A stretch of DNA of 64,000 nucleotides from an uncultured Armatimonadetes bacterium (GTDB lineage: Bacteria; Armatimonadota; UBA5829; DTJY01), in NCBI GenBank assembly GCA_963717145.1, contig OY970325.1, positions 2,624,001 through 2,688,000 on the forward strand, written 5' to 3'. A model generated the notes under the pieces. That model saw only the letters and a program-made list of their open reading frames with translations. It did no database searches and had not been told where the DNA came from. The position numbers and the translations under genes were made by a program. Below, one piece after another: positions 19,323 through 27,754 of the stretch (positions are counted from its first letter, which is position 1; each line of letters starts with the position of its first letter).

Positions 19323-19327
19323 CGCGG

Positions 19328-19392
19328 GTAGTGGCCGTGCCTCTGTGCCGGCCATCCTACGTTGCAGGCCGGCACAGAGGCACGGCCACTAC
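19328..19392. repeat. GTAG REP pair (family GTAGTGGCCGTGCCTC; also 48301-48366, 52489-52554, 60780-60890, half copies ~26816-26841 and ~57379-57402)
   Basis: GTAGTGGCCGTGCCTC.GTGCCGGCC...GGCCGGCAC.GAGGCACGGCCACTAC recurs across the window. Confidence 0.9.
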
Positions 19393-19403
19393 AAGATCAG
19401 CCA

Positions 19404-20159
19404 ATGAATCACAACAACCAGCTTGAACAGATTCTATCCGACGTCCGAGCGGGGAAGCTCACGGTGCAGGAAGCGATGAAGAGCCTCAGGGGGCTTCCAT
19501 ATGAGGACCTCGAATTCGCCAAGATAGACCACCATCGCACGCTTCGGACCGGATTCCCCGAGGTCGTGTTCTGCCAGGGCAAGACGATCCCGCAGGTGGT
19601 CGAGATCATCAGGCGACTCTCCGAGCGTCACCCATCGGTCCTCGCAACACGCGCGACTCAGGAGATGGCCGATGCCGTCGCGCGCGAGATCACGAATGCG
19701 CGGTACCACGAAGCGGCGAGGTGCATCACCGTCTGCCGACCGGAATCGAAGGCCGAGACGGAGAGCGATAAGTTCATCCTGGTGGTCTCAGCCGGAACCG
19801 CCGACATCCCGGTCGCCGAGGAAGCGGCGGTCACCGCCCAAGTGATGGGCAGCCGCGTCGAGCGCGTCTACGATGTCGGCGTCGCAGGGCTGCATCGCCT
19901 GCTGGACCAGAAGAAGAAGCTCGAGGACGCAAACGTGATCATCGTGTGCGCCGGCATGGAGGGCGCGCTCCCGAGCGTGATCGGGGGACTGGTCGACTGC
20001 CCGGTGATCGCCGTGCCGACGAGCATCGGATACGGCGCGAGCTTCCAGGGATTGGCGGCGCTCCTCTCGATGCTGAACACCTGCGCGGAAGGGGTCGCAG
20101 TCGTGAACATCGACAACGGCTTCGGCGCGGGCTATTTCGCGCACATGATCAACAGATAG
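19404..20159 (+). CDS. larB: Nickel-pincer cofactor biosynthesis protein LarB
   Basis: DHHR..RTGFPEVVFC.GK, AGTADIPVAEEA, DVGVAGLHRL, AGMEGAL, PTSIGYG, VVNIDNGFGA. Confidence 0.95.
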   Translation: MNHNNQLEQILSDVRAGKLTVQEAMKSLRGLPYEDLEFAKIDHHRTLRTGFPEVVFCQGKTIPQVVEIIRRLSERHPSVLATRATQEMADAVAREITNARYHEAARCITVCRPESKAETESDKFILVVSAGTADIPVAEEAAVTAQVMGSRVERVYDVGVAGLHRLLDQKKKLEDANVIIVCAGMEGALPSVIGGLVDCPVIAVPTSIGYGASFQGLAALLSMLNTCAEGVAVVNIDNGFGAGYFAHMINR

Positions 20160-20244
20160 AGTATGGGAGTGTGGGAGTATGTGAGTGGGGGAGTTTGAGA
20201 GTCCGATTGCTCCCACACTCCCATACTCCCACACTCCCACACTC
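20159..20244. repeat. Inverted octamer arrays (gagtgtgg / ccacactc)
   Basis: gagtatgggagtgtgggagtatgtgagt...actcccatactcccacactcccacactc; similar array at 26289-26366. Confidence 0.75.
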
Positions 20245-20256
20245 AGCGGAGATATC

Positions 20257-21422
20257 ATGCGAATCGCTTACTTCGACTGCTTTGCCGGAATCAGCGGGGA
20301 CATGACCCTCGCGGCACTCCTCGACGCGGGCGTGGATGAGAAGGCTTTCCGCCATGAGATCGCCAAGCTCGGTGACCTCGGCTTCGAGTTGCAGGTGACC
20401 AAGGTCCTGAAGCGTGGCATCGAGGCGACCGACGTCAGCGTTGTGATCGAGGAGAGCCACCATCACCGCAAGCTGAACGATGTGCGGCGGATCATCGACG
20501 AGAGCGCGCTCTCGGACGCCGTCAAGTCGCGCGCGGTCGAAGTCTTCGTCCGGCTGGCTGAAGCCGAGGGGAGATCCACGGCCATTCGCCCGAGGAGGTC
20601 CACTTCCACGAGGTCGGCGCGGTGGATGCGATCGTGGACATCGTCGGCGCGTGCATCGGGATCGAGCTGCTCGGCGTCGAGAAGGTCTACGCCTCGCCGA
20701 TGCCGATGGGTCACGGATTCGTCGAGGCGGCACACGGTCGCATTCCCCTGCCCGCCCCGGCGACCATAGAGATACTCAGGGGCATCCCGGTGTATGACGC
20801 CGGCATCGAGGGCGAGACCATCACTCCAACAGGAGCGGCGATCATCCGCACGCTGACAGACCAGTTCGGCGATATGCCCCCGATGCGCATCCAGTCGATC
20901 GGTTACGGCGCGGGCAAGCGTGACTCTGAGATGCCGAACGTCCTGCGGGTCTTCGTCGGCGACGCTGAGGAGGCCGACCTCCCCGCGCACCAGGTTTCCA
21001 TCGTCGAGACGAATATCGACGACATGAACCCCGAGTTCTACGAGCCGGCGATGGAGCGGCTCTTCGAAGCAGGCGCGCTCGATGTGTACCTGACCCCGAT
21101 CGTCATGAAGAAGGGTCGGCCCGCGACTCTCTTGACCGCCATCTGTCCGATTCAGAGGACCGACGAGGTCGCGCGAGTCATCCTGAGGGAGACCTCGTCG
21201 TTTGGCGTTCGAATCTCCCGGGCGACGCGTAGATGCCTCGACAGGCGCTGGGAGACGGTCACCACGCGATACGGCGACATCCGCGTCAAGATCGGAACGG
21301 CGGACGGAATCGAGACCACCTCCCCCGAGTATGAGGACTGCAGGAAGGCCGCGGATCAGCATGGCGTTCCCGTGCGCGAGGTCTACAGCGAGGCGCTGAG
21401 TCTGTACCGTACTGAGCGATGA
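20257..21422 (+). CDS. larC: Nickel insertase LarC (frameshift ~20570)
   Basis: YFDCFAGISGDM, HFHEVGA, AHG..P.PAPAT, TPTGAA, ETNIDD, MKKGRP, PEYEDC. Confidence 0.92.
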
Positions 21423-22393
21423 ACTCCCCCACCCCGACGACTCTTTCACTCCATGCCATGGCCACCCGGTTCGAGGTGATGCTCCACGGCGATGAGCCCG
21501 CGAGGCTTCGCGCCGCCGGTGAGGAGGCGCTCGCGGAGATCGAACGACTCGACCGCCAACTCAGCTTCTACGACCCCGCGAGCGAGATCAGCCGCATCAA
21601 CACCCGCGCCGCGTTCGAGTCGGTCAGGATCGATCCGCGACTCTTGCGGCTGCTCGAACGATGTGCCGACCTCAGCCGCCTCACCGATGAGGCATTCGAC
21701 ATCACGATCGCGCCACTCATGCAGGTCTGGGGATTCACGGGGGCATCCGGGGCAGTCCCCGATCAGGAGAGCATCAGGAGAGCGCTCGATGTCGTCGGGA
21801 TGGCACACATCCTCCTCGATCCAGGGGACCACACCGTGCGTTTCGACGGGCCCGGCGTGATGGTCGATCTCGGAGCGGTCGGCAAGGGGTATGCCATCGA
21901 GCGCGCGGTGGAGGTGTTGAGGGAATGCGGCGTCACGAGCGCATTGATTCACGGCGGCACGAGCACGGTCTACGCGATCGGATCGCCGCCCGATCAGGAC
22001 GCCTGGCGCGTCGGGATTGCGGATCCGGATGCCCCCTCCCCAACCCTCCCCGCAACGGAGAGGGGGTCAACTCGCAGGCCGCCGGGGGTACTCCCTCTCC
22101 GTTGCGGGGAGGGTTGGGGAGGGGGCATCCGCGAGACGGTTCACCTGCGCGACAGTGCCCTCTCCGTGTCGGCGGTTCATGGCAAGTCGTTCGTCGAAGG
22201 CGGCACGGAATACGGCCACGTGATCGACCCACGGTCCGGGCAAGCGGCGACCGGGACGCTCCTGGCGTCGGTGACCGGTCCATCGCCGACGGACTCCGAC
22301 GCGCTCTCGACCGCCCTCCTGATTCTCGGCAAGCCGGGTCTCGATATACTGCGGGAGAGATTTCCTGACTGCCAGGGGATTGTAGCGTCGTAG
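21419..22393 (+). CDS. apbE: FAD:protein FMN transferase ApbE with in-frame palindrome
   Basis: SEISRIN, FDITIAPL..WGF, DLGAVGKGYA, HVIDPRSG, SDALSTA. Confidence 0.9.
   Translation: MNSPTPTTLSLHAMATRFEVMLHGDEPARLRAAGEEALAEIERLDRQLSFYDPASEISRINTRAAFESVRIDPRLLRLLERCADLSRLTDEAFDITIAPLMQVWGFTGASGAVPDQESIRRALDVVGMAHILLDPGDHTVRFDGPGVMVDLGAVGKGYAIERAVEVLRECGVTSALIHGGTSTVYAIGSPPDQDAWRVGIADPDAPSPTLPATERGSTRRPPGVLPLRCGEGWGGGIRETVHLRDSALSVSAVHGKSFVEGGTEYGHVIDPRSGQAATGTLLASVTGPSPTDSDALSTALLILGKPGLDILRERFPDCQGIVAS
22026..22131. repeat. Palindrome in frame inside apbE
   Basis: cggatgccccctccccaaccctccccgcaacggagaggg and its exact reverse complement. Confidence 0.92.
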
Positions 22394-22495
22394 CGGAGAT
22401 GAAGGTTTGCTCATGTTTCAGGGTCTGATCTGATGTGAACATGCACCCAAAGGTGTATAATGCAGCCACAAGGATATAGCCAAGCGAGGAGTGCC

Positions 22496-23314
22496 ATGAA
22501 AATCCATCCGGTCAAACGCTATTCTGAACCCAGGTATCCGACCAATCGTGTTCTCGATCAGCATCCGGAGTTGCTCAGGCTCATCCCGAAGCGGTGGCAG
22601 GGCAATCCGGTTCTTATTGCAGCCCTCACAGGGCTCTGCGTGCTCACGGCAAGTTGCCGGGCGTTGTCCTCGTCCAAGCCGCCCACGCCGACATCACGCG
22701 TTGCCCCGATATTCCGGCATGGCTACGGCGTCGGCGGCTATGGCTGCGTCGCGACCGCAGCCCCCGTGTTCCTCTCCGAAGAGGAGGCTCGCAAGATCAT
22801 CGTGGACGAGGGCAAGCGGGGCGGATTGACCTTCGAGCCGGGGACTGCGCCGCTCAAAGGCATCAGCGTCCCAGTCATCGAGAAAATGGGCGACCAGGTG
22901 CCCCGCAAGCGAGACGGGAAGCTCGAGAAGGTTCCGGCCAGGTTCAAGACGAAGAAGGCTGACGTCAAACCTGACGGAGTGGACAAGAAGCGCAAGGTGT
23001 CGTTTGAGTTCGTCTCGACGGACGATTTTGAGGCGTGGTCCGTCAAGGACCCCCGCATCACTTCCACTTGGATCTCGACCGACCTCCTTGGCACTGCCGC
23101 GCTGTTCAGGGAATCGCTGGCCAAGTCGAAGCCGCTGGGCGACTACGGCGTATTCTACGATCCGGTTTCCTACGAGGTGTACCAGTTCAACGAAGAGAAA
23201 CCCTCCGCGGATGTGTCGGCTCGGAACGAGGCCGTGAGGAAACAAGCTGAGACGGACCTTCGCGGGCAGGTCAAGGACTTCATCAAGTGGCTCAAGTCCC
23301 AGGGAGTGATCTAG
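22496..23314 (+). CDS. Hypothetical exported/lipoprotein-like protein, paralog A (putative radical SAM substrate)
   Basis: GAGGAG RBS; strong N-terminal, central and C-terminal similarity to the next gene. Confidence 0.8.
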   Translation: MKIHPVKRYSEPRYPTNRVLDQHPELLRLIPKRWQGNPVLIAALTGLCVLTASCRALSSSKPPTPTSRVAPIFRHGYGVGGYGCVATAAPVFLSEEEARKIIVDEGKRGGLTFEPGTAPLKGISVPVIEKMGDQVPRKRDGKLEKVPARFKTKKADVKPDGVDKKRKVSFEFVSTDDFEAWSVKDPRITSTWISTDLLGTAALFRESLAKSKPLGDYGVFYDPVSYEVYQFNEEKPSADVSARNEAVRKQAETDLRGQVKDFIKWLKSQGVI

Positions 23315-23328
23315 AGGCAAGGTGTATC

Positions 23329-24057
23329 ATGGAAGTCCGTCCGGTGAAGCACTACAGGCAGCCGAGGTATCCCACAAATCGAATTCTTGAGCAGCATCCC
23401 GAACTGCTCAGGCTCGTGCCGAAGCGCTGGCAGGGCAATCCGCTCGTCATCACCGCCCTGACCGGCCTGTGCATCCTGATGGCGGGGTGCCGAGCAGGGG
23501 GACAAGCAGCGTCTCACGTTGCCCCTATCTTCGTGCACGGCGCAGGTCGCGGCGGTTTCGGCTGTGTAGCGGTCAATCCGCCAGTGGTCCTCTCAGAAGC
23601 TGAAGCGCACCAGGTAATAGTCGAGGAGGCGAAAAAGTCGGGGATCGATCTGAAGCCCGGCGTCCAGACTGCGCTGAATACTGATCTGGATGGGCCCGAC
23701 CCAAGGCGCTTGATCTCTTACGAGTTTACATCCTCTAAGGACACAGCGGCGCGGCAGCGCAGGAGTTTCTGGAATCGTTCCTCGGCATATACGCTTGATT
23801 GCCAAGCTGAGGCAAACCGGTTTCGCGACCGACTTGCGAAGGCCAGGCCTGCCGGGAGTTATGGTGTGTTCTATGACCCTTTCGTCAAGCCCAGACGGTT
23901 GGTATATACCAGAGGCAGTTCAGGAAGCACAGACTCGAAGGCCTGGGTTGCGGAACGCAAGAGCGCAAGGGACGCCGCTAAGATCGCCGCCAAAGAGGAG
24001 GTCCGGGAGCAGGTCAAGGACTTCATCAAGTGGCTGAAGGCCGAGGGAGTGATCTGA
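23329..24057 (+). CDS. Hypothetical exported/lipoprotein-like protein, paralog B (putative radical SAM substrate)
   Basis: MEVRPVKHYRQPRYPT...; shares QVKDFIKWLK..GVI C-terminus with paralog A. Confidence 0.8.
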   Translation: MEVRPVKHYRQPRYPTNRILEQHPELLRLVPKRWQGNPLVITALTGLCILMAGCRAGGQAASHVAPIFVHGAGRGGFGCVAVNPPVVLSEAEAHQVIVEEAKKSGIDLKPGVQTALNTDLDGPDPRRLISYEFTSSKDTAARQRRSFWNRSSAYTLDCQAEANRFRDRLAKARPAGSYGVFYDPFVKPRRLVYTRGSSGSTDSKAWVAERKSARDAAKIAAKEEVREQVKDFIKWLKAEGVI

Positions 24058-24058
24058 T

Positions 24059-25204
24059 ATGCATCTGACTCTCCACCTTACCGCGCGGTGCAACATGCGA
24101 TGCCGGTACTGCTATGCCGCGCCACATCAGGGCGGAGACATGACGCTCGAGACCACTAAGTCCGCAATCGGGATGGCAGTCGAACACCTCAACCGCGACT
24201 CACCAGGCGGGAGTCTGGGGGTGATCTTCTTCGGCGGGGAACCGCTCCTGATGCGCGACCTGATCGTCGACACAATCCTCCACTGCCGGCAGGTCGAGGC
24301 GGAGACCGGTCAGCTCTTCCACTACAAGGTCACCACGAACGGCCTGCTGCTCGATGAGGAATTCCTCACTCATCCGGACACGTCGGAGGTCTTCGTCGCC
24401 CTCAGCCACGACGGCACAAGGGCGGCGCACGATGCCAACCGCATGGATGCATCAGGTCGAGGCACGTTCGATCCGCTGGAAGAGAAGATAGACCTGCTCC
24501 TTCGACACAAGCCGTATGCGCCGGTGATGAAGGTCGTCACGCCGGATACCGTCGGCCACTATGCTGAGTCGATCGAGTACCTGTTCGACAAGGGTTTCCG
24601 CTACCTGATCTGCTCACTCGACTACGGCGCGCAGTGGGAGGAGGGCCACCTGGCCGAACTGCAGCGCCAGTACGAACTCATCGCCGACTGGTACTACGAG
24701 AAGACGCTTGGGGAGGAGAAGTTCTACTTCAGTCCGTTCGAGGTCAAGATCTCATCGCACGTCCACCCGGGAAGCTGCCTGGCGGAGAGATGCGAGCTTG
24801 GCCGGACGCAGATATCCGTCGCGCCGAACGGGAGACTCTATCCCTGCGTGCAGTTCGTCGGCGACGGAACGGATGACACCTGGTCGATCGGCGACGTAAC
24901 GACCGGCATCGACGAGGAGGCGCGCTGGCGGCTGTACGACATGAACCGCGAGGAGAAGGAGAGCTGCCGGACTTGCGCGATCCGGAGCCGGTGCAATCAC
25001 TACTGCGGATGCCTGAACAAGCAGGCAACGGGGCGCATCGACCTGGTGTCGCCGATGCTCTGCGCTCATGAGCGGACGGTCCTGCCGATCGCCGATCGTC
25101 TGGCGGCGCGGCTCTACAAGCGCAAAGACCCGATGTTCATCCAGAAGCACTACAACGAGATGTTCCCGCTGGTATCGCTGGTTGAGGATTCCACGAAAGC
25201 CTGA
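24059..25204 (+). CDS. Radical SAM/SPASM maturase (anSME/peptide-maturase-like)
   Basis: CNMRCRYC, FFGGEPLL, TTNG; SPASM Cys pattern CELG...GRLYPC...CRTCAIRSRCNHYCGC...LC. Confidence 0.92.
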   Translation: MHLTLHLTARCNMRCRYCYAAPHQGGDMTLETTKSAIGMAVEHLNRDSPGGSLGVIFFGGEPLLMRDLIVDTILHCRQVEAETGQLFHYKVTTNGLLLDEEFLTHPDTSEVFVALSHDGTRAAHDANRMDASGRGTFDPLEEKIDLLLRHKPYAPVMKVVTPDTVGHYAESIEYLFDKGFRYLICSLDYGAQWEEGHLAELQRQYELIADWYYEKTLGEEKFYFSPFEVKISSHVHPGSCLAERCELGRTQISVAPNGRLYPCVQFVGDGTDDTWSIGDVTTGIDEEARWRLYDMNREEKESCRTCAIRSRCNHYCGCLNKQATGRIDLVSPMLCAHERTVLPIADRLAARLYKRKDPMFIQKHYNEMFPLVSLVEDSTKA

Positions 25205-25213
25205 CTGGTCCTA

Positions 25214-25876
25214 CTACTCGCTGCTTACTCGCTCTTGCTTCTTCAGCTCGCCGACCTCCTGCTCGAGGTGGCGCACCCGGTCGAGTATGCACTCCACCGC
25301 CCTCTGCACCGGGTCCGGGAGTTCGTGCTGCTCGAGGTCGATCTCGCCTGCGACCCTCTGGCCGTCGCGATGAGTCACGCGGCCAGGCACTCCGACGACC
25401 ACCGAATTGGGCGGCACCTCGTGGACGACCACCGATCCCGCGCCAATCCTGCTGTTCTCGCCGACCTTGAACGGGCCGAGGACCTTCGCGCCGGCGCCGA
25501 TGACGACGTTGTCGCCGATCGTCGGATGGCGCTTCTCTTTCCGCCAACTCGTTCCGCCGAGGGTGACGCCGTGGTAGAGGGTGACATTCTCGCCGATCTC
25601 AGCGGTCTCACCGATGACAACGCCCATACCGTGGTCGATGAAGAACCCGCGGCCGATAGTCGCGCCGGGATGGATCTCGATGCCGGTGAAGAAGCGTCCG
25701 GTCTGCGACACCATTCGTGCGAGCAGCCGCGCGTTGCACCTCCACAGCCAGTGTGCCATGCGGTGGTAGAAGAGGACGTGGAAACCGGGGTAGCAGATGA
25801 TGACCTCGAGCGTCCCCCGGCATGCCGGGTCCCGCTCCTTGACTGCCTGGATATCGCTTTTCAGTCTGCCAAACAC
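25214..25876 (-). CDS. cysE: Serine O-acetyltransferase
   Basis: [37 protein letters not shown]. Confidence 0.95.
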
Positions 25877-26006
25877 CTCTCTCCCCCTCTCCGGTCCTAC
25901 TCCTACTCATACTCATACTCAAACGGGGCCCACCGTCAGTCCTGAGTGCACCGTCATTCACCGGCGCACTCAGGACTGACGGTGGGCTTTCTCCTGGAAT
26001 CGCAGA

Positions 26007-26261: not shown

Positions 26262-26359
26262 GATTATCCTCCTCGGAATTGCGAGATTGGAGTAATGGAC
26301 TGCTGGAGTACTGGAGTGGTGGGTTCCGGAACCCAATACTCCAACACTCCAATACTCCA

Positions 26360-26776
26360 TTACTCCATGTACTTACCCTTCTCCATCTCGAGACCCTTGC
26401 CGGTGGTCTTCTTCAGGTAATCGTCTATCGCCGACTGGATTGCTTCCTCGGCGAGAACCGAACAGTGCATCTTGACAGGCGGGAGTCCGCCGAGCGCCTC
26501 CGCCACGGCCTTATTGCTGAGCGTCAGCGCCTCCTCGATGGTCTTACCCTTGATCAACTCGGTTGCCATGCTGCTTGTGGCGATCGCCGCTCCGCAGCCG
26601 AAGGTCTTGAACTTGACGTCGGTGATGACGTTATCCTCGACCTTGATGTACATCTTCATGATATCGCCACAGACGGGATTACCGACGCTTCCGATGCCAT
26701 CGGCATCAGGAATCTCGCCAACGTTGCGCGGATTCATGAAGTGCTCCATCACCTTGTCACTGTACTGAGTGTTCAT
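26360..26776 (-). CDS. iscU: Fe-S scaffold IscU/NifU-N
   Basis: YSDKVMEHF.NPRNVG, GNPVCGD, KTFGCG.AIA, LPPVKMHCS. Confidence 0.95.
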   Translation of the reverse strand: MNTQYSDKVMEHFMNPRNVGEIPDADGIGSVGNPVCGDIMKMYIKVEDNVITDVKFKTFGCGAAIATSSMATELIKGKTIEEALTLSNKAVAEALGGLPPVKMHCSVLAEEAIQSAIDDYLKKTTGKGLEMEKGKYME

Positions 26777-26841
26777 TCTTCTCCTCCGGTTCAGACTGCT
26801 GACTGCCGCAGCAAAGGCCGGCACAGAGGCGCGGCCACTAC

Positions 26842-26917
26842 CCATCGTTCGGGCAGGAGTTGTACTCCTGCCCGTCTCACCTGGCGGGCAGGAGTACAAC
26901 TCCTGCCCGAACGATGG
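26842..26917. repeat. REP-like palindrome
   Basis: ccatcgttcgggcaggagttgtactcctgcccg...cgggcaggagtacaactcctgcccgaacgatgg. Confidence 0.85.
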
Positions 26918-27649: not shown

Positions 27650-27754
27650 AGAAAGAGACTCCCAACTAGGTGGGCGGGCGGGTACAAACTCCGGATGCGG
27701 TGGCCGTTCCCGGAGTTTGTACCCGCCCGCCCACCCAGTTGGGAGTCTCTTTCT
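27650..27754. repeat. Long intergenic palindrome
   Basis: agaaagagactcccaact.ggtgggcgggcgggtacaaactccgg and its reverse complement. Confidence 0.9.

Follow-up and report, generated by a model that had tools for sequence, protein, structure and literature searches.

Radical S-adenosylmethionine (SAM) enzymes with a SPASM domain are mostly known as maturases of short peptides, most of which are recognised through an N-terminal RiPP recognition element (RRE; RiPP, a peptide made by ribosomes and modified after translation). The anSME enzymes have no RRE, need no N-terminal leader and act on a Cys or Ser of full-length proteins that are exported afterwards. CteB and PapB, both with a full SPASM domain, perform leader-dependent Cys thioether chemistry on SCIFF and PapA precursors, which are short peptides with Cys-rich repeats. 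QhpD likewise forms leader-dependent thioethers, from Cys to Asp or Glu of QhpC, and does so in the cytoplasm before this subunit reaches the periplasm; the 28-residue leader of QhpC is removed by the protease QhpE, and export is by the ABC transporter QhpF (PMC7876137). In Methanococcus voltae, the SPASM enzyme CrpC puts thioethers on CrpA, a protein of ~29 kDa that is encoded next to it and accompanied by a paralogous second protein with a common N-terminus (PMC13692751). Precursors of DAG-RiPPs, including proteins >30 kDa, are modified by MNIO enzymes, carry signals for signal peptidase I (SPI) or II (SPII) and then undergo Sec or lipoprotein processing (PMC13056109). The locus described here lies in a window of 64,000 nucleotides (nt) from an uncultured Armatimonadetes bacterium (contig OY970325.1 of assembly GCA_963717145.1; all positions are window coordinates), and ties a sizeable family of exported proteins to a SPASM enzyme without an RRE.

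Three genes, defined by a listing of open reading frames (ORFs) and their translations, follow one another on the plus strand: gene A (P0001, 272 residues, 22496-23314), gene B (P0002, 242 residues, 23329-24057) and gene C (P0003, 381 residues, 24059-25204). The gaps between them are 14 nt and 1 nt, in agreement with the tight coupling that had been claimed for this locus. A and its paralog B are tagged proteins with putative export signals and are the two candidate substrates, and C is a radical SAM/SPASM enzyme. We consider it probable that A and B are modified by C in the cytoplasm under guidance of a leader, and are exported afterwards. The original prediction, made from the sequence of this stretch, had proposed an undescribed system of this kind, in which a SPASM enzyme works on full-length exported proteins and the extension preceding the signal peptide is the leader; comparative data and a controlled complex prediction now support it. 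The pairing of the genes, the portability of the leader tag and the association of a loop Cys with the enzyme all emerge from the comparative data.

Like anSME, C would be an RRE-less SPASM enzyme acting on a full-length protein destined for export; unlike in the anSME system, a sulfatase domain and a C/S-x-P/A-x-R motif are both missing from A and B. The closest sequence relatives are CteB and PapB, but their substrates are short Cys-rich repeat peptides, whereas A and B are exported proteins of 240-270 residues with one candidate Cys. In addition, C lacks ~98 N-terminal residues of CteB and has an extra conserved C-terminal tail. With QhpD/QhpC the locus shares a SPASM enzyme, an N-terminal leader and the modification of a protein before export, and the QhpD model scores 137 bits on gene C; it differs in having no third conserved gene, a leader that is the n-region of a signal peptide, no qhp genes and an unrelated substrate family. 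CrpC differs from C by a predicted RRE and CrpA from A and B by many motifs and a high Cys content, and a leader embedded in a signal peptide is not described in the available text on CrpC/CrpA. Cytoplasmic modification of RiPP type followed by general Sec or lipoprotein export is the likeness to DAG-RiPPs; there, however, the enzyme is an MNIO and the recognition motif is C-terminal, whereas here a radical SAM enzyme is present and an n-region extension is the predicted docking element. The DUF692-type MNIO and the C-terminal CPACGMG-type motif of DAG-RiPPs have no counterpart in this system, which has no third conserved gene and whose substrate C-terminus, LRxQVxDFIKWLK, contains no Cys. The terms 'radical SAM', 'rSAM' and 'SPASM' do not occur in the available text of PMC13056109. 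Literature searches, in which supplements were excluded, returned no paper describing the A family or the cassette, and Supplemental Data set 1 of PMC13692751 might list such loci.

What is new compared with the known logic of QhpD/QhpC, CrpC/CrpA and DAG-RiPPs is therefore the combination of an unannotated substrate family without a solved relative, an enzyme without an RRE, predicted docking on a C-terminal tail, a leader embedded in the signal and the lack of a dedicated protease or transporter. A signal-embedded leader would explain why two genes suffice, since signal peptidase and general export would supply the remainder. Radical SAM chemistry on envelope proteins could be tested directly in this system, for which cultured members and a natural control by fused copies exist, and the predicted role of the C-terminal tail makes it a candidate for a new leader-binding module in engineering.

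To follow the A family, species-representative genomes were scanned, which gave 77 loci, and these loci were examined by tblastn and hidden Markov model (HMM) searches; 14 of them are fusions with glycoside hydrolase family 2 (GH2) in Verrucomicrobia, and 63 are others. They are distributed over Armatimonadota, Acidobacteriota, Bacillota, Planctomycetota, Hydrogenedentota, Lentisphaerota, Bacteroidota, Hyphomicrobiales and Verrucomicrobiota, and the carriers in Bacillota include the cultured Hungatella hathewayi and Pseudobacteroides cellulosolvens. Of the 63 non-fusion loci, 54 contain a substantial enzyme ortholog (46-77% identity), usually a few bases 3' of the last of 1-9 tandem A copies. 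Among the other nine, two contain an enzyme fragment only (L043, and L058 at a contig end), four end ~100 nt or less past the last A copy (L034, L041, L050, L056) and in three no radical SAM gene lies close by (L027, L040, L049). When the genomes of L027, L040, L043, L049 and L061 were searched, all five had an enzyme ortholog elsewhere (E<=1e-40), and an A-type ORF lay beside these relocated orthologs in 6/6 loci, although at L081 it was the N-terminal part only. The A family and the enzyme are a conserved two-part cassette that recurs across at least eight phyla. Tandem copies can be numerous: a Fimbriimonadaceae locus (L014:2371-7848) has nine tagged copies followed by the enzyme, of which seven are shortened (120-226 residues) and have no HGxGxGxxGC motif and two are canonical.

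The same pairing appears in the reverse direction. A metagenome scan with the enzyme alignment yielded 80 loci, and an A-family ORF was found in 24 of the 27 whose enzyme is at least 41% identical; two of the three misses have <250 nt upstream and the third, L116, has an ORF that by eye is a divergent look-alike. Both scans bear out the proposed co-occurrence of A-type proteins with this radical SAM clade. Within 301 genomes of the phylum, 13 have the enzyme, 12 have the A family and 10 have both, and in the two A-only genomes the match is merely a partial C-terminal one inside longer frames. A and the enzyme diverge in parallel: their pairwise identities correlate over 47 loci (Spearman 0.665, not reached in any of 500 Mantel permutations), although kinship inflates such tests. 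Clustering of neighbouring ORFs left only two families common to tagged loci, A and the enzyme; the remaining recurrent clusters belong mainly to Verrucomicrobia fusion loci or are spurious overlapping ORFs. Hence no conserved protease or transporter belongs to the system. In the host genome (5.37 Mb), the leader HMM matches only A and B (E ~4e-7; next best 0.29), and P0003 has no paralog at E<=1e-5.

The 14 Verrucomicrobia loci serve as a natural negative control. In them the A domain (profile ~60-261) forms the C-terminal end of a protein of ~1,170 residues with GH2 and F5/8-type-C domains in Pfam (L062-L068, L070-L072, L075-L078; e.g. L066:3001-6534), and one of the source metagenome-assembled genomes is labelled Akkermansia muciniphila. 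An N-terminal tag and a radical SAM gene at the locus are both missing for the fused copies, and the loop Cys (column 84) occurs in 0/14 of them versus 80/102 full-length tagged copies; of 55 loci, 53 contain one Cys copy or more. Retained in the fused copies are the APxFxHGxG start, E95, D160, D177, FYDP and the QVxDFxxWLK helix. The consensus of Cys-type copies (>=75%) departs from that of the fusions at columns 80, 83, 84, 89, 92, 93, 97 and 174 and at the last residues, and within the mature domain no part other than loop columns 80-93 systematically tells radical-SAM-linked copies from fused ones. The tag and the GxxGC loop, both missing from the fused copies without an enzyme, are accordingly the pair of features that go together with the enzyme. 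This discrimination favours the GGxGC sequence, which had been suggested as the modification site, and the HGxGxGxxGC loop, with C84 in A and C79 in B, is most likely the modified site. The C-terminal helix motif, which the radical-SAM-free fusions keep, is thus structural and not specific to radical SAM linkage. As a separate observation, fusion to a GH2 beta-galactosidase-like protein hints at a glycan- or surface-related role of the A domain.

A and B are 42% identical (BLASTP, E=3e-71). Direct repeats in the DNA join their 5' ends (D1, 22484-22662 and 23317-23495, 73%) and their 3' ends (23254-23312 and 23997-24055, 86%); hence the termini are conserved and the middle is divergent, as the original prediction had stated. 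The motifs that it named, an N-terminal block, LTASC and LMAGC, APIFxHGxGxGG[YF]GC and a conserved C-terminus, were all found. Both proteins consist, in order, of a basic segment of ~37 residues, a hydrophobic stretch of ~16 residues, LTAS-C or LMAG-C, APIFxHGxGxGGxGC, the variable middle and a conserved C-terminal helix.

In gene A, the tag preceding the signal takes up residues 1-37 (PVKxYxxPxYPT ... PELLRLxPKRW; 22496-22606, plus strand, as are all features of the three genes); it is conserved in the homolog alignment A1, is detected by the leader HMM and forms part of the predicted interface with the enzyme. The hydrophobic region spans residues 38-54 and by its sequence pattern ends in the lipobox-like LTAS-C54 (22607-22657). 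The HGxGxGxxGC loop, the candidate modification site, covers residues 75-93 with H75 and C84 (22718-22774), and the C-terminal helix motif LRxQVxDFIKWLKxxGVI covers residues 254-272 (23255-23311), where Q258, V259, F262, W265, L266 and K267 are invariant in A1. The corresponding parts of gene B are the tag in residues 1-37 (23329-23439; leader HMM E=3.8e-7, and within repeat D1), the hydrophobic region in residues 38-54 with a lipobox-like LMAG-C54 by the same pattern (23440-23490) and the loop in residues 70-88 with H70 and C79 (23536-23592), placed by alignment with homologs.

A and B match no family in Pfam or NCBIfam. Relatives of A are nevertheless numerous: a word-indexed search gave 65 homologs, and a profile search of 1.84 billion sequences, as 50%-identity representatives, gave 1,955 at E<=0.001, 1,515 at 1e-10 and 893 at 1e-30. 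An AlphaFold2 model of A from 40 homologs has a mean predicted local distance difference test (pLDDT) of 84.7 and a predicted template modelling score of 0.74, and is confident except at the extreme N-terminus and in block 81-90, which lies in the loop and has a pLDDT of 68, against 92 and 96 in the blocks on either side. Foldseek comparison of this model with the PDB gave 0 matches at E<=0.001 (339 at E<=10), the best E of a profile search of the A family against PDB sequences was 0.29, and a search of the ESM Atlas for relatives of A returned only unnamed 'hypothetical protein' clusters. Some Hungatella homologs (P0068, P0070, P0071, P0073; L017, L020) bear the NCBI name 'metalloprotease', and members of identical clusters are named 'hypothetical protein'. 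An NCBIfam search of the Hungatella and Pseudobacteroides homologs matched no model and gave no basis for the label, and no HExxH motif is visible in A or B.

Gene C has the Pfam domains Radical_SAM (PF04055, 48.3 bits with a cut-off of 29.5; E=1.6e-12), Fer4_12 and SPASM (PF13186, 22.5 bits with a cut-off of 21.5), the last spanning residues 245-306. Its CX3CX2C cluster motif lies at residues 11-18 (24089-24112), with C11, C15 and C18 invariant in the ortholog alignment A2, and its SPASM cysteines C245, C263, C303, C306, C312, C316, C318 and C335 lie at residues 245-335 (24791-25063) and are all invariant in the 36 orthologs of A2. Cluster motif, domain score and a seven-Cys auxiliary-cluster pattern plus C318 are those expected of the radical SAM/SPASM superfamily, in which C can be placed on its sequence. 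The nearest solved relative is CteB (5wgg, E=3.7e-34), with residues 3-329 aligned to CteB 99-429, and the anSME structure 4k37 is detectable at E=1.4e-16. In NCBIfam the top match is the PapB family NF047865 with 209.1 bits (cut-off 340), followed by SCIFF maturase TIGR03974 with 150.6 (cut-off 425; alignment from model position 99), QhpD TIGR03906 with 137.4 (cut-off 453) and anSME TIGR03942 with 82.2 (cut-off 349). The nearest characterised relatives, that is PapB, SCIFF and QhpD by the models and CteB by structure, are thus all thioether formers.

The enzyme begins only 10 residues before CX3CX2C, which leaves no room for an N-terminal RRE part; because its start aligns with CteB residue 99, C has no such part. 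The Pfam domains and the CteB alignment therefore agree with the earlier description of a CxxxCxxC and SPASM enzyme without an N-terminal RRE, and the locus does not appear as an RRE-dependent RiPP system in its sequence, having no RRE at the N-terminus of C and no conserved partner gene. At the other end, an extension at residues 338-381 (25070-25201) lies beyond the alignments to the PapB model (3-327) and to CteB (3-329), and leaves ~50 C-terminal residues unaligned. This extension is specific to the clade, with E338, D346, L352, F360, K363, Y365, N366, S373 and E376 invariant across the 36 orthologs, and is the predicted surface for leader docking.

For the complex prediction, the enzyme alignment was combined with A residues 1-100, three 4Fe-4S clusters and SAM, in three runs and three controls. 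The leader-enzyme complex scored 0.84 in the three runs, and the best of the three controls scored 0.01. The score mark used is reached by 58/80 solved complexes and 2/110 mismatched pairs, but it was calibrated without small molecules and with other alignments, and so applies roughly. Agreement between the runs covers at least 58% of contacts, with a partner pLDDT of no less than 54. Confidently predicted contacts link A residues 1-9, 12-20, 26-34, 37 and 39-47 with enzyme residues 193, 219, 234-237, 302-309 and 330-379, so that the enzyme side is the SPASM domain with the C-terminal extension. The predicted complex thus seats residues 1-47, with the tag, against the SPASM domain plus the clade-specific C-terminal tail. 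A complex of leader and enzyme had been proposed as a check, and the difference between 0.84 and 0.01 speaks for it. The earlier argument from YxxP as a leader-recognition motif presupposes recognition of the RRE type, which sits poorly with an enzyme that lacks an RRE and whose predicted contacts with the tag are made by its SPASM domain and C-terminal tail.

The segment preceding the hydrophobic stretch has a median net charge of +5 in tagged copies. A lipobox-like end, scored with a PROSITE PS51257-style core pattern, is found in 46/102 tagged homologs, and the other 56 have none, some being AxA-like or SPI-like. LTAS-C54 of A and LMAG-C54 of B match this core when the PROSITE rule for the position of Cys is set aside in view of the long n-region. 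We infer that A and B carry a cleavable SPI or SPII signal with an extended n-region, and that cleavage would remove the leader. A Tat (twin-arginine translocation) signal, with K32-R33 as a variant of the twin arginine, was also considered; column 33 is R in only 41/80 Cys-type copies and many have PSAW or PPAW, so that poor conservation of the basic pair led us to reject this reading.

In the mechanism that we propose, A and B would be made with a Sec or lipoprotein signal peptide whose n-region is unusually long (~37 residues), conserved and net positive. While the precursor is still in the cytoplasm, the first ~20 residues of this n-region are predicted to dock on the SPASM domain and C-terminal tail of C. 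The enzyme may then modify the mature part, most likely at the flexible HGxGxGxxGC loop, where the likeliest product would be a Cys-derived thioether crosslink of the CteB/PapB/QhpD type. The modified precursor would leave by the general pathway, and signal peptidase I or II would cut off leader and signal together. A dedicated protease or transporter would then be unneeded, because signal peptidase removes the leader with the signal and general export does the rest.

Several observations weigh against this proposal, most of them against its chemistry. Loop Cys is absent from 22/102 tagged copies, which mostly have no H75 and G78 of HGxG either and yet keep the leader (P15 in 22/22, P31 in 22/22, W34 in 21/22), and loci L058 and L061 have no Cys copy at all. 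The substrates of related enzymes, of the Cu_amine_oxidN1 and short-lipoprotein types described below, have no conserved Cys; thus a Cys thioether cannot be the chemistry of the whole clade. PapB accepted Cys-to-acidic spacings of 0-6, according to the available text of PMC9413430, and in P0001 the first acidic residue past C84 is E95, 11 positions away with 10 residues between. Moreover, PapB-type precursors are short peptides with repeated Cys-X(0-6)-Asp/Glu, and A and B are proteins of 242-272 residues with one candidate Cys. All specific NCBIfam scores of C fall below their cut-offs. In the complex model, A residues 48-100 make no confident contact, and the model is thus silent on the modification site. 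The case for signal peptide cleavage is drawn wholly from sequence patterns. Taken within leader-guided modification, a Cys thioether remains a serious candidate, to which we give somewhat less than an even chance.

The same leader-guided cassette might act on a residue other than Cys by another radical chemistry (epimerisation, for instance, or C-C or C-O crosslinking), with the loop Cys incidental or engaged, for example, in metal binding beside H75. The Cys-less tagged paralogs that retain the leader fit this well, as do enzymes 36-55% identical that adjoin tagged substrates without a conserved Cys, and some Cys-less A copies score 7.6 to 11.4 bits near the loop position with the motif of the short lipoproteins. 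However, that motif has its top match at the loop in only 7/111 A-family sequences, with a median below background, while a Cys copy is present in 53 of 55 loci and in none of the 14 radical-SAM-free fusions, and the nearest characterised relatives make thioethers; we regard this alternative as unlikely, but as the one to be kept in mind. Much less can be said for oxidation of the loop Cys to formylglycine by an anSME-like enzyme, which would provide a catalytic aldehyde in an exported enzyme. The anSME relatives are detectable (82 bits with TIGR03942; 4k37 as above), anSME too acts on full-length proteins that are exported later, and C-x-A in the loop is partly like C/S-x-P/A-x-R; yet 82 bits compares with a cut-off of 349 and is below the scores of the thioether formers, position +4 holds no Arg, and neither a sulfatase domain nor a sulfatase fold was found in A or B, which makes this reading very improbable.

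Slightly less probable still is a reading in which the N-terminal segment is not a transient leader. It could instead be the lasting cytoplasmic tail of a type II membrane protein, which would hold the enzyme at the membrane for another target, or the tail or signal peptide itself could be modified. The tag is indeed the most conserved and most portable part, 56/102 copies have no lipobox-like end, and predicted contacts involve the tag and the beginning of the hydrophobic segment but no residue past it. But the lipobox-like end in 46/102 copies and the lipobox-type Cys in all listed short-lipoprotein relatives would each imply removal of the tag, and the hydrophobic stretch has merely ~16 residues. 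The tag, moreover, has no invariant reactive residue, position 14 being Y, F, L or I, and no other conserved gene is available to supply a different substrate. That paralogs and enzyme are adjacent by chance, or merely share an operon, has a negligible probability in view of synteny over at least eight phyla, co-divergence, the phyletic profile, the natural negative control and the controlled complex prediction. We therefore retain leader-guided modification before export as the preferred reading.

Two further analyses concerned the loop. In a search for a covarying partner of the loop Cys no distal column stood out, and the strongest associations were local (columns 75-92). A shared core motif, seen by eye between FGCVAV of A and L.G[DE]VAI of the short lipoproteins, was rejected for the canonical Cys copies including A and B: besides the 7/111 top matches at the loop, the count rises to 13 when the top three matches are considered, and the median best score is 0.6 in the A family versus 1.0 in background ORFs, with 0.8 and 3.1 for A and B, outside the loop. 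It remains a lead for the Cys-less copies mentioned above only.

The tag is not confined to A-type proteins. In the three enzyme-only genomes among the 301, the ORFs directly 5' of the enzyme open with the same tag, M-(K/R)-x-x-P-x-(K/R)-...-P-x-Y-P-(T/A) followed by a hydrophobic signal, and continue with a different mature part: Cu_amine_oxidN1 in L097 (E=1.4e-13) and L098 (8.6e-8), and an unrelated region in L095. Tagged proteins with other mature parts lie at L097:2633-3241(-), L097:3281-3952(-), L098:810-1478(+), L095:809-1396(+) and L081:1079-1486(+), each beside an enzyme ortholog 51-65% identical. A 20-residue leader HMM run over the window and the collected loci gave 149 matches, of which 139 are on A-domain proteins and the rest mostly on alternative substrates or truncated A copies. 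The minimal tag would have ~20 residues (PVKxYxxPxYPT), because in the Planctomycetaceae copies (L050, L053, L057), which still have the enzyme, only positions 1-20 remain ahead of the hydrophobic stretch.

More divergent enzymes adjoin other lipoproteins. Those 36-40% identical to P0003 lie 3' of short lipoproteins (75-190 residues) with a similar tag, a lipobox and the repeated motif L.G[DE][VI]A[IV]. This motif was recovered by unsupervised expectation maximisation in 20 short lipoproteins, with a gain in log-likelihood of 370 versus 100-143 in 10 shuffles. Enzymes 29-32% identical to P0003 adjoin a third lipoprotein family. Since tagged lipoproteins adjoin its divergent enzymes too, a broad RRE-less SPASM clade is associated with conserved extensions preceding signal peptides. 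A more general idea is that the ~20-residue tag is a portable 'hold for maturation' address, placed ahead of unrelated export signals and read by the C-terminal tail of the RRE-less clade, and that in the A family, whose domain would be extracytoplasmic, the enzyme builds a protein-derived crosslink or cofactor at the HGxGxGxxGC loop. We hold this to be doubtful as a whole; if true, a so far undescribed radical SAM reaction on proteins would follow from the Cys-free substrates.

The short-lipoprotein loci come from gut and rumen metagenomes (L132-L148, L152, L154, L160, L161, L166, L171; e.g. L145:1494-2536, L139:3616-3993). They have 1-3 lipoproteins in tandem, each with 2-6 L.G[DE][VI]A[IV] repeats, directly 5' of a SPASM enzyme 31-40% identical to P0003, and these proteins look like a distinct uncharacterised class of substrates. 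The third family (L164, L165, L167, L169, L172; e.g. L165:1841-4001) consists of 2-3 tandem Ser-rich copies 5' of a SPASM enzyme (31-32%). Its members start with MKIEKKK and have a lipobox with acidic residues after it, an IPLSHE...EALSS block and a conserved C-terminal motif, MV(T/S)T(F/Y)E...

Concerning expression of the three genes, a Shine-Dalgarno-like GAGGAG is read at 22486-22491 (+), 4 nt 5' of the ATG of gene A, and a TATAAT hexamer, a possible -10 box, at 22456-22461 (+). The hexamer had been noted at ~22456 and is indeed present, but a consensus scan of 22200-25500 found 0 sigma-70-like promoters, that is no -35/-10 pair, and 0 terminator-like sites, so that a promoter of gene A has no support beyond the hexamer. 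The unit ends with gene C, because the downstream cysE is convergent.

Upstream of gene A, a larE-larB-larC-apbE row contains a LarC nickel-insertion gene split over two overlapping frames (20257-21419, +); larE and larB were named by reading translations. By Pfam Ni_insertion, 20257-20769 covers positions 1-105 and 20622-21419 covers positions 122-375, and the split could reflect a frameshift, programmed or otherwise. The ApbE frame (21419-22393) includes an inverted repeat of 42 nt, 98% complementary with a 22-nt spacer (22026-22131). Residues 14-316 of ApbE span only 260 profile positions, which is consistent with an in-frame palindromic insertion. Near-perfect intergenic hairpins with arms of 26-45 nt lie 3' of several genes (19328-19392, 20159-20244, 25928-25987, 26288-26367, 26842-26917, 27650-27754). 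These hairpins may be repetitive extragenic palindromic (REP)-like elements, or terminators of a kind that the T-run scan does not score, and one family of hairpin arms is repeated at 19326-19392 and 26815-26843.

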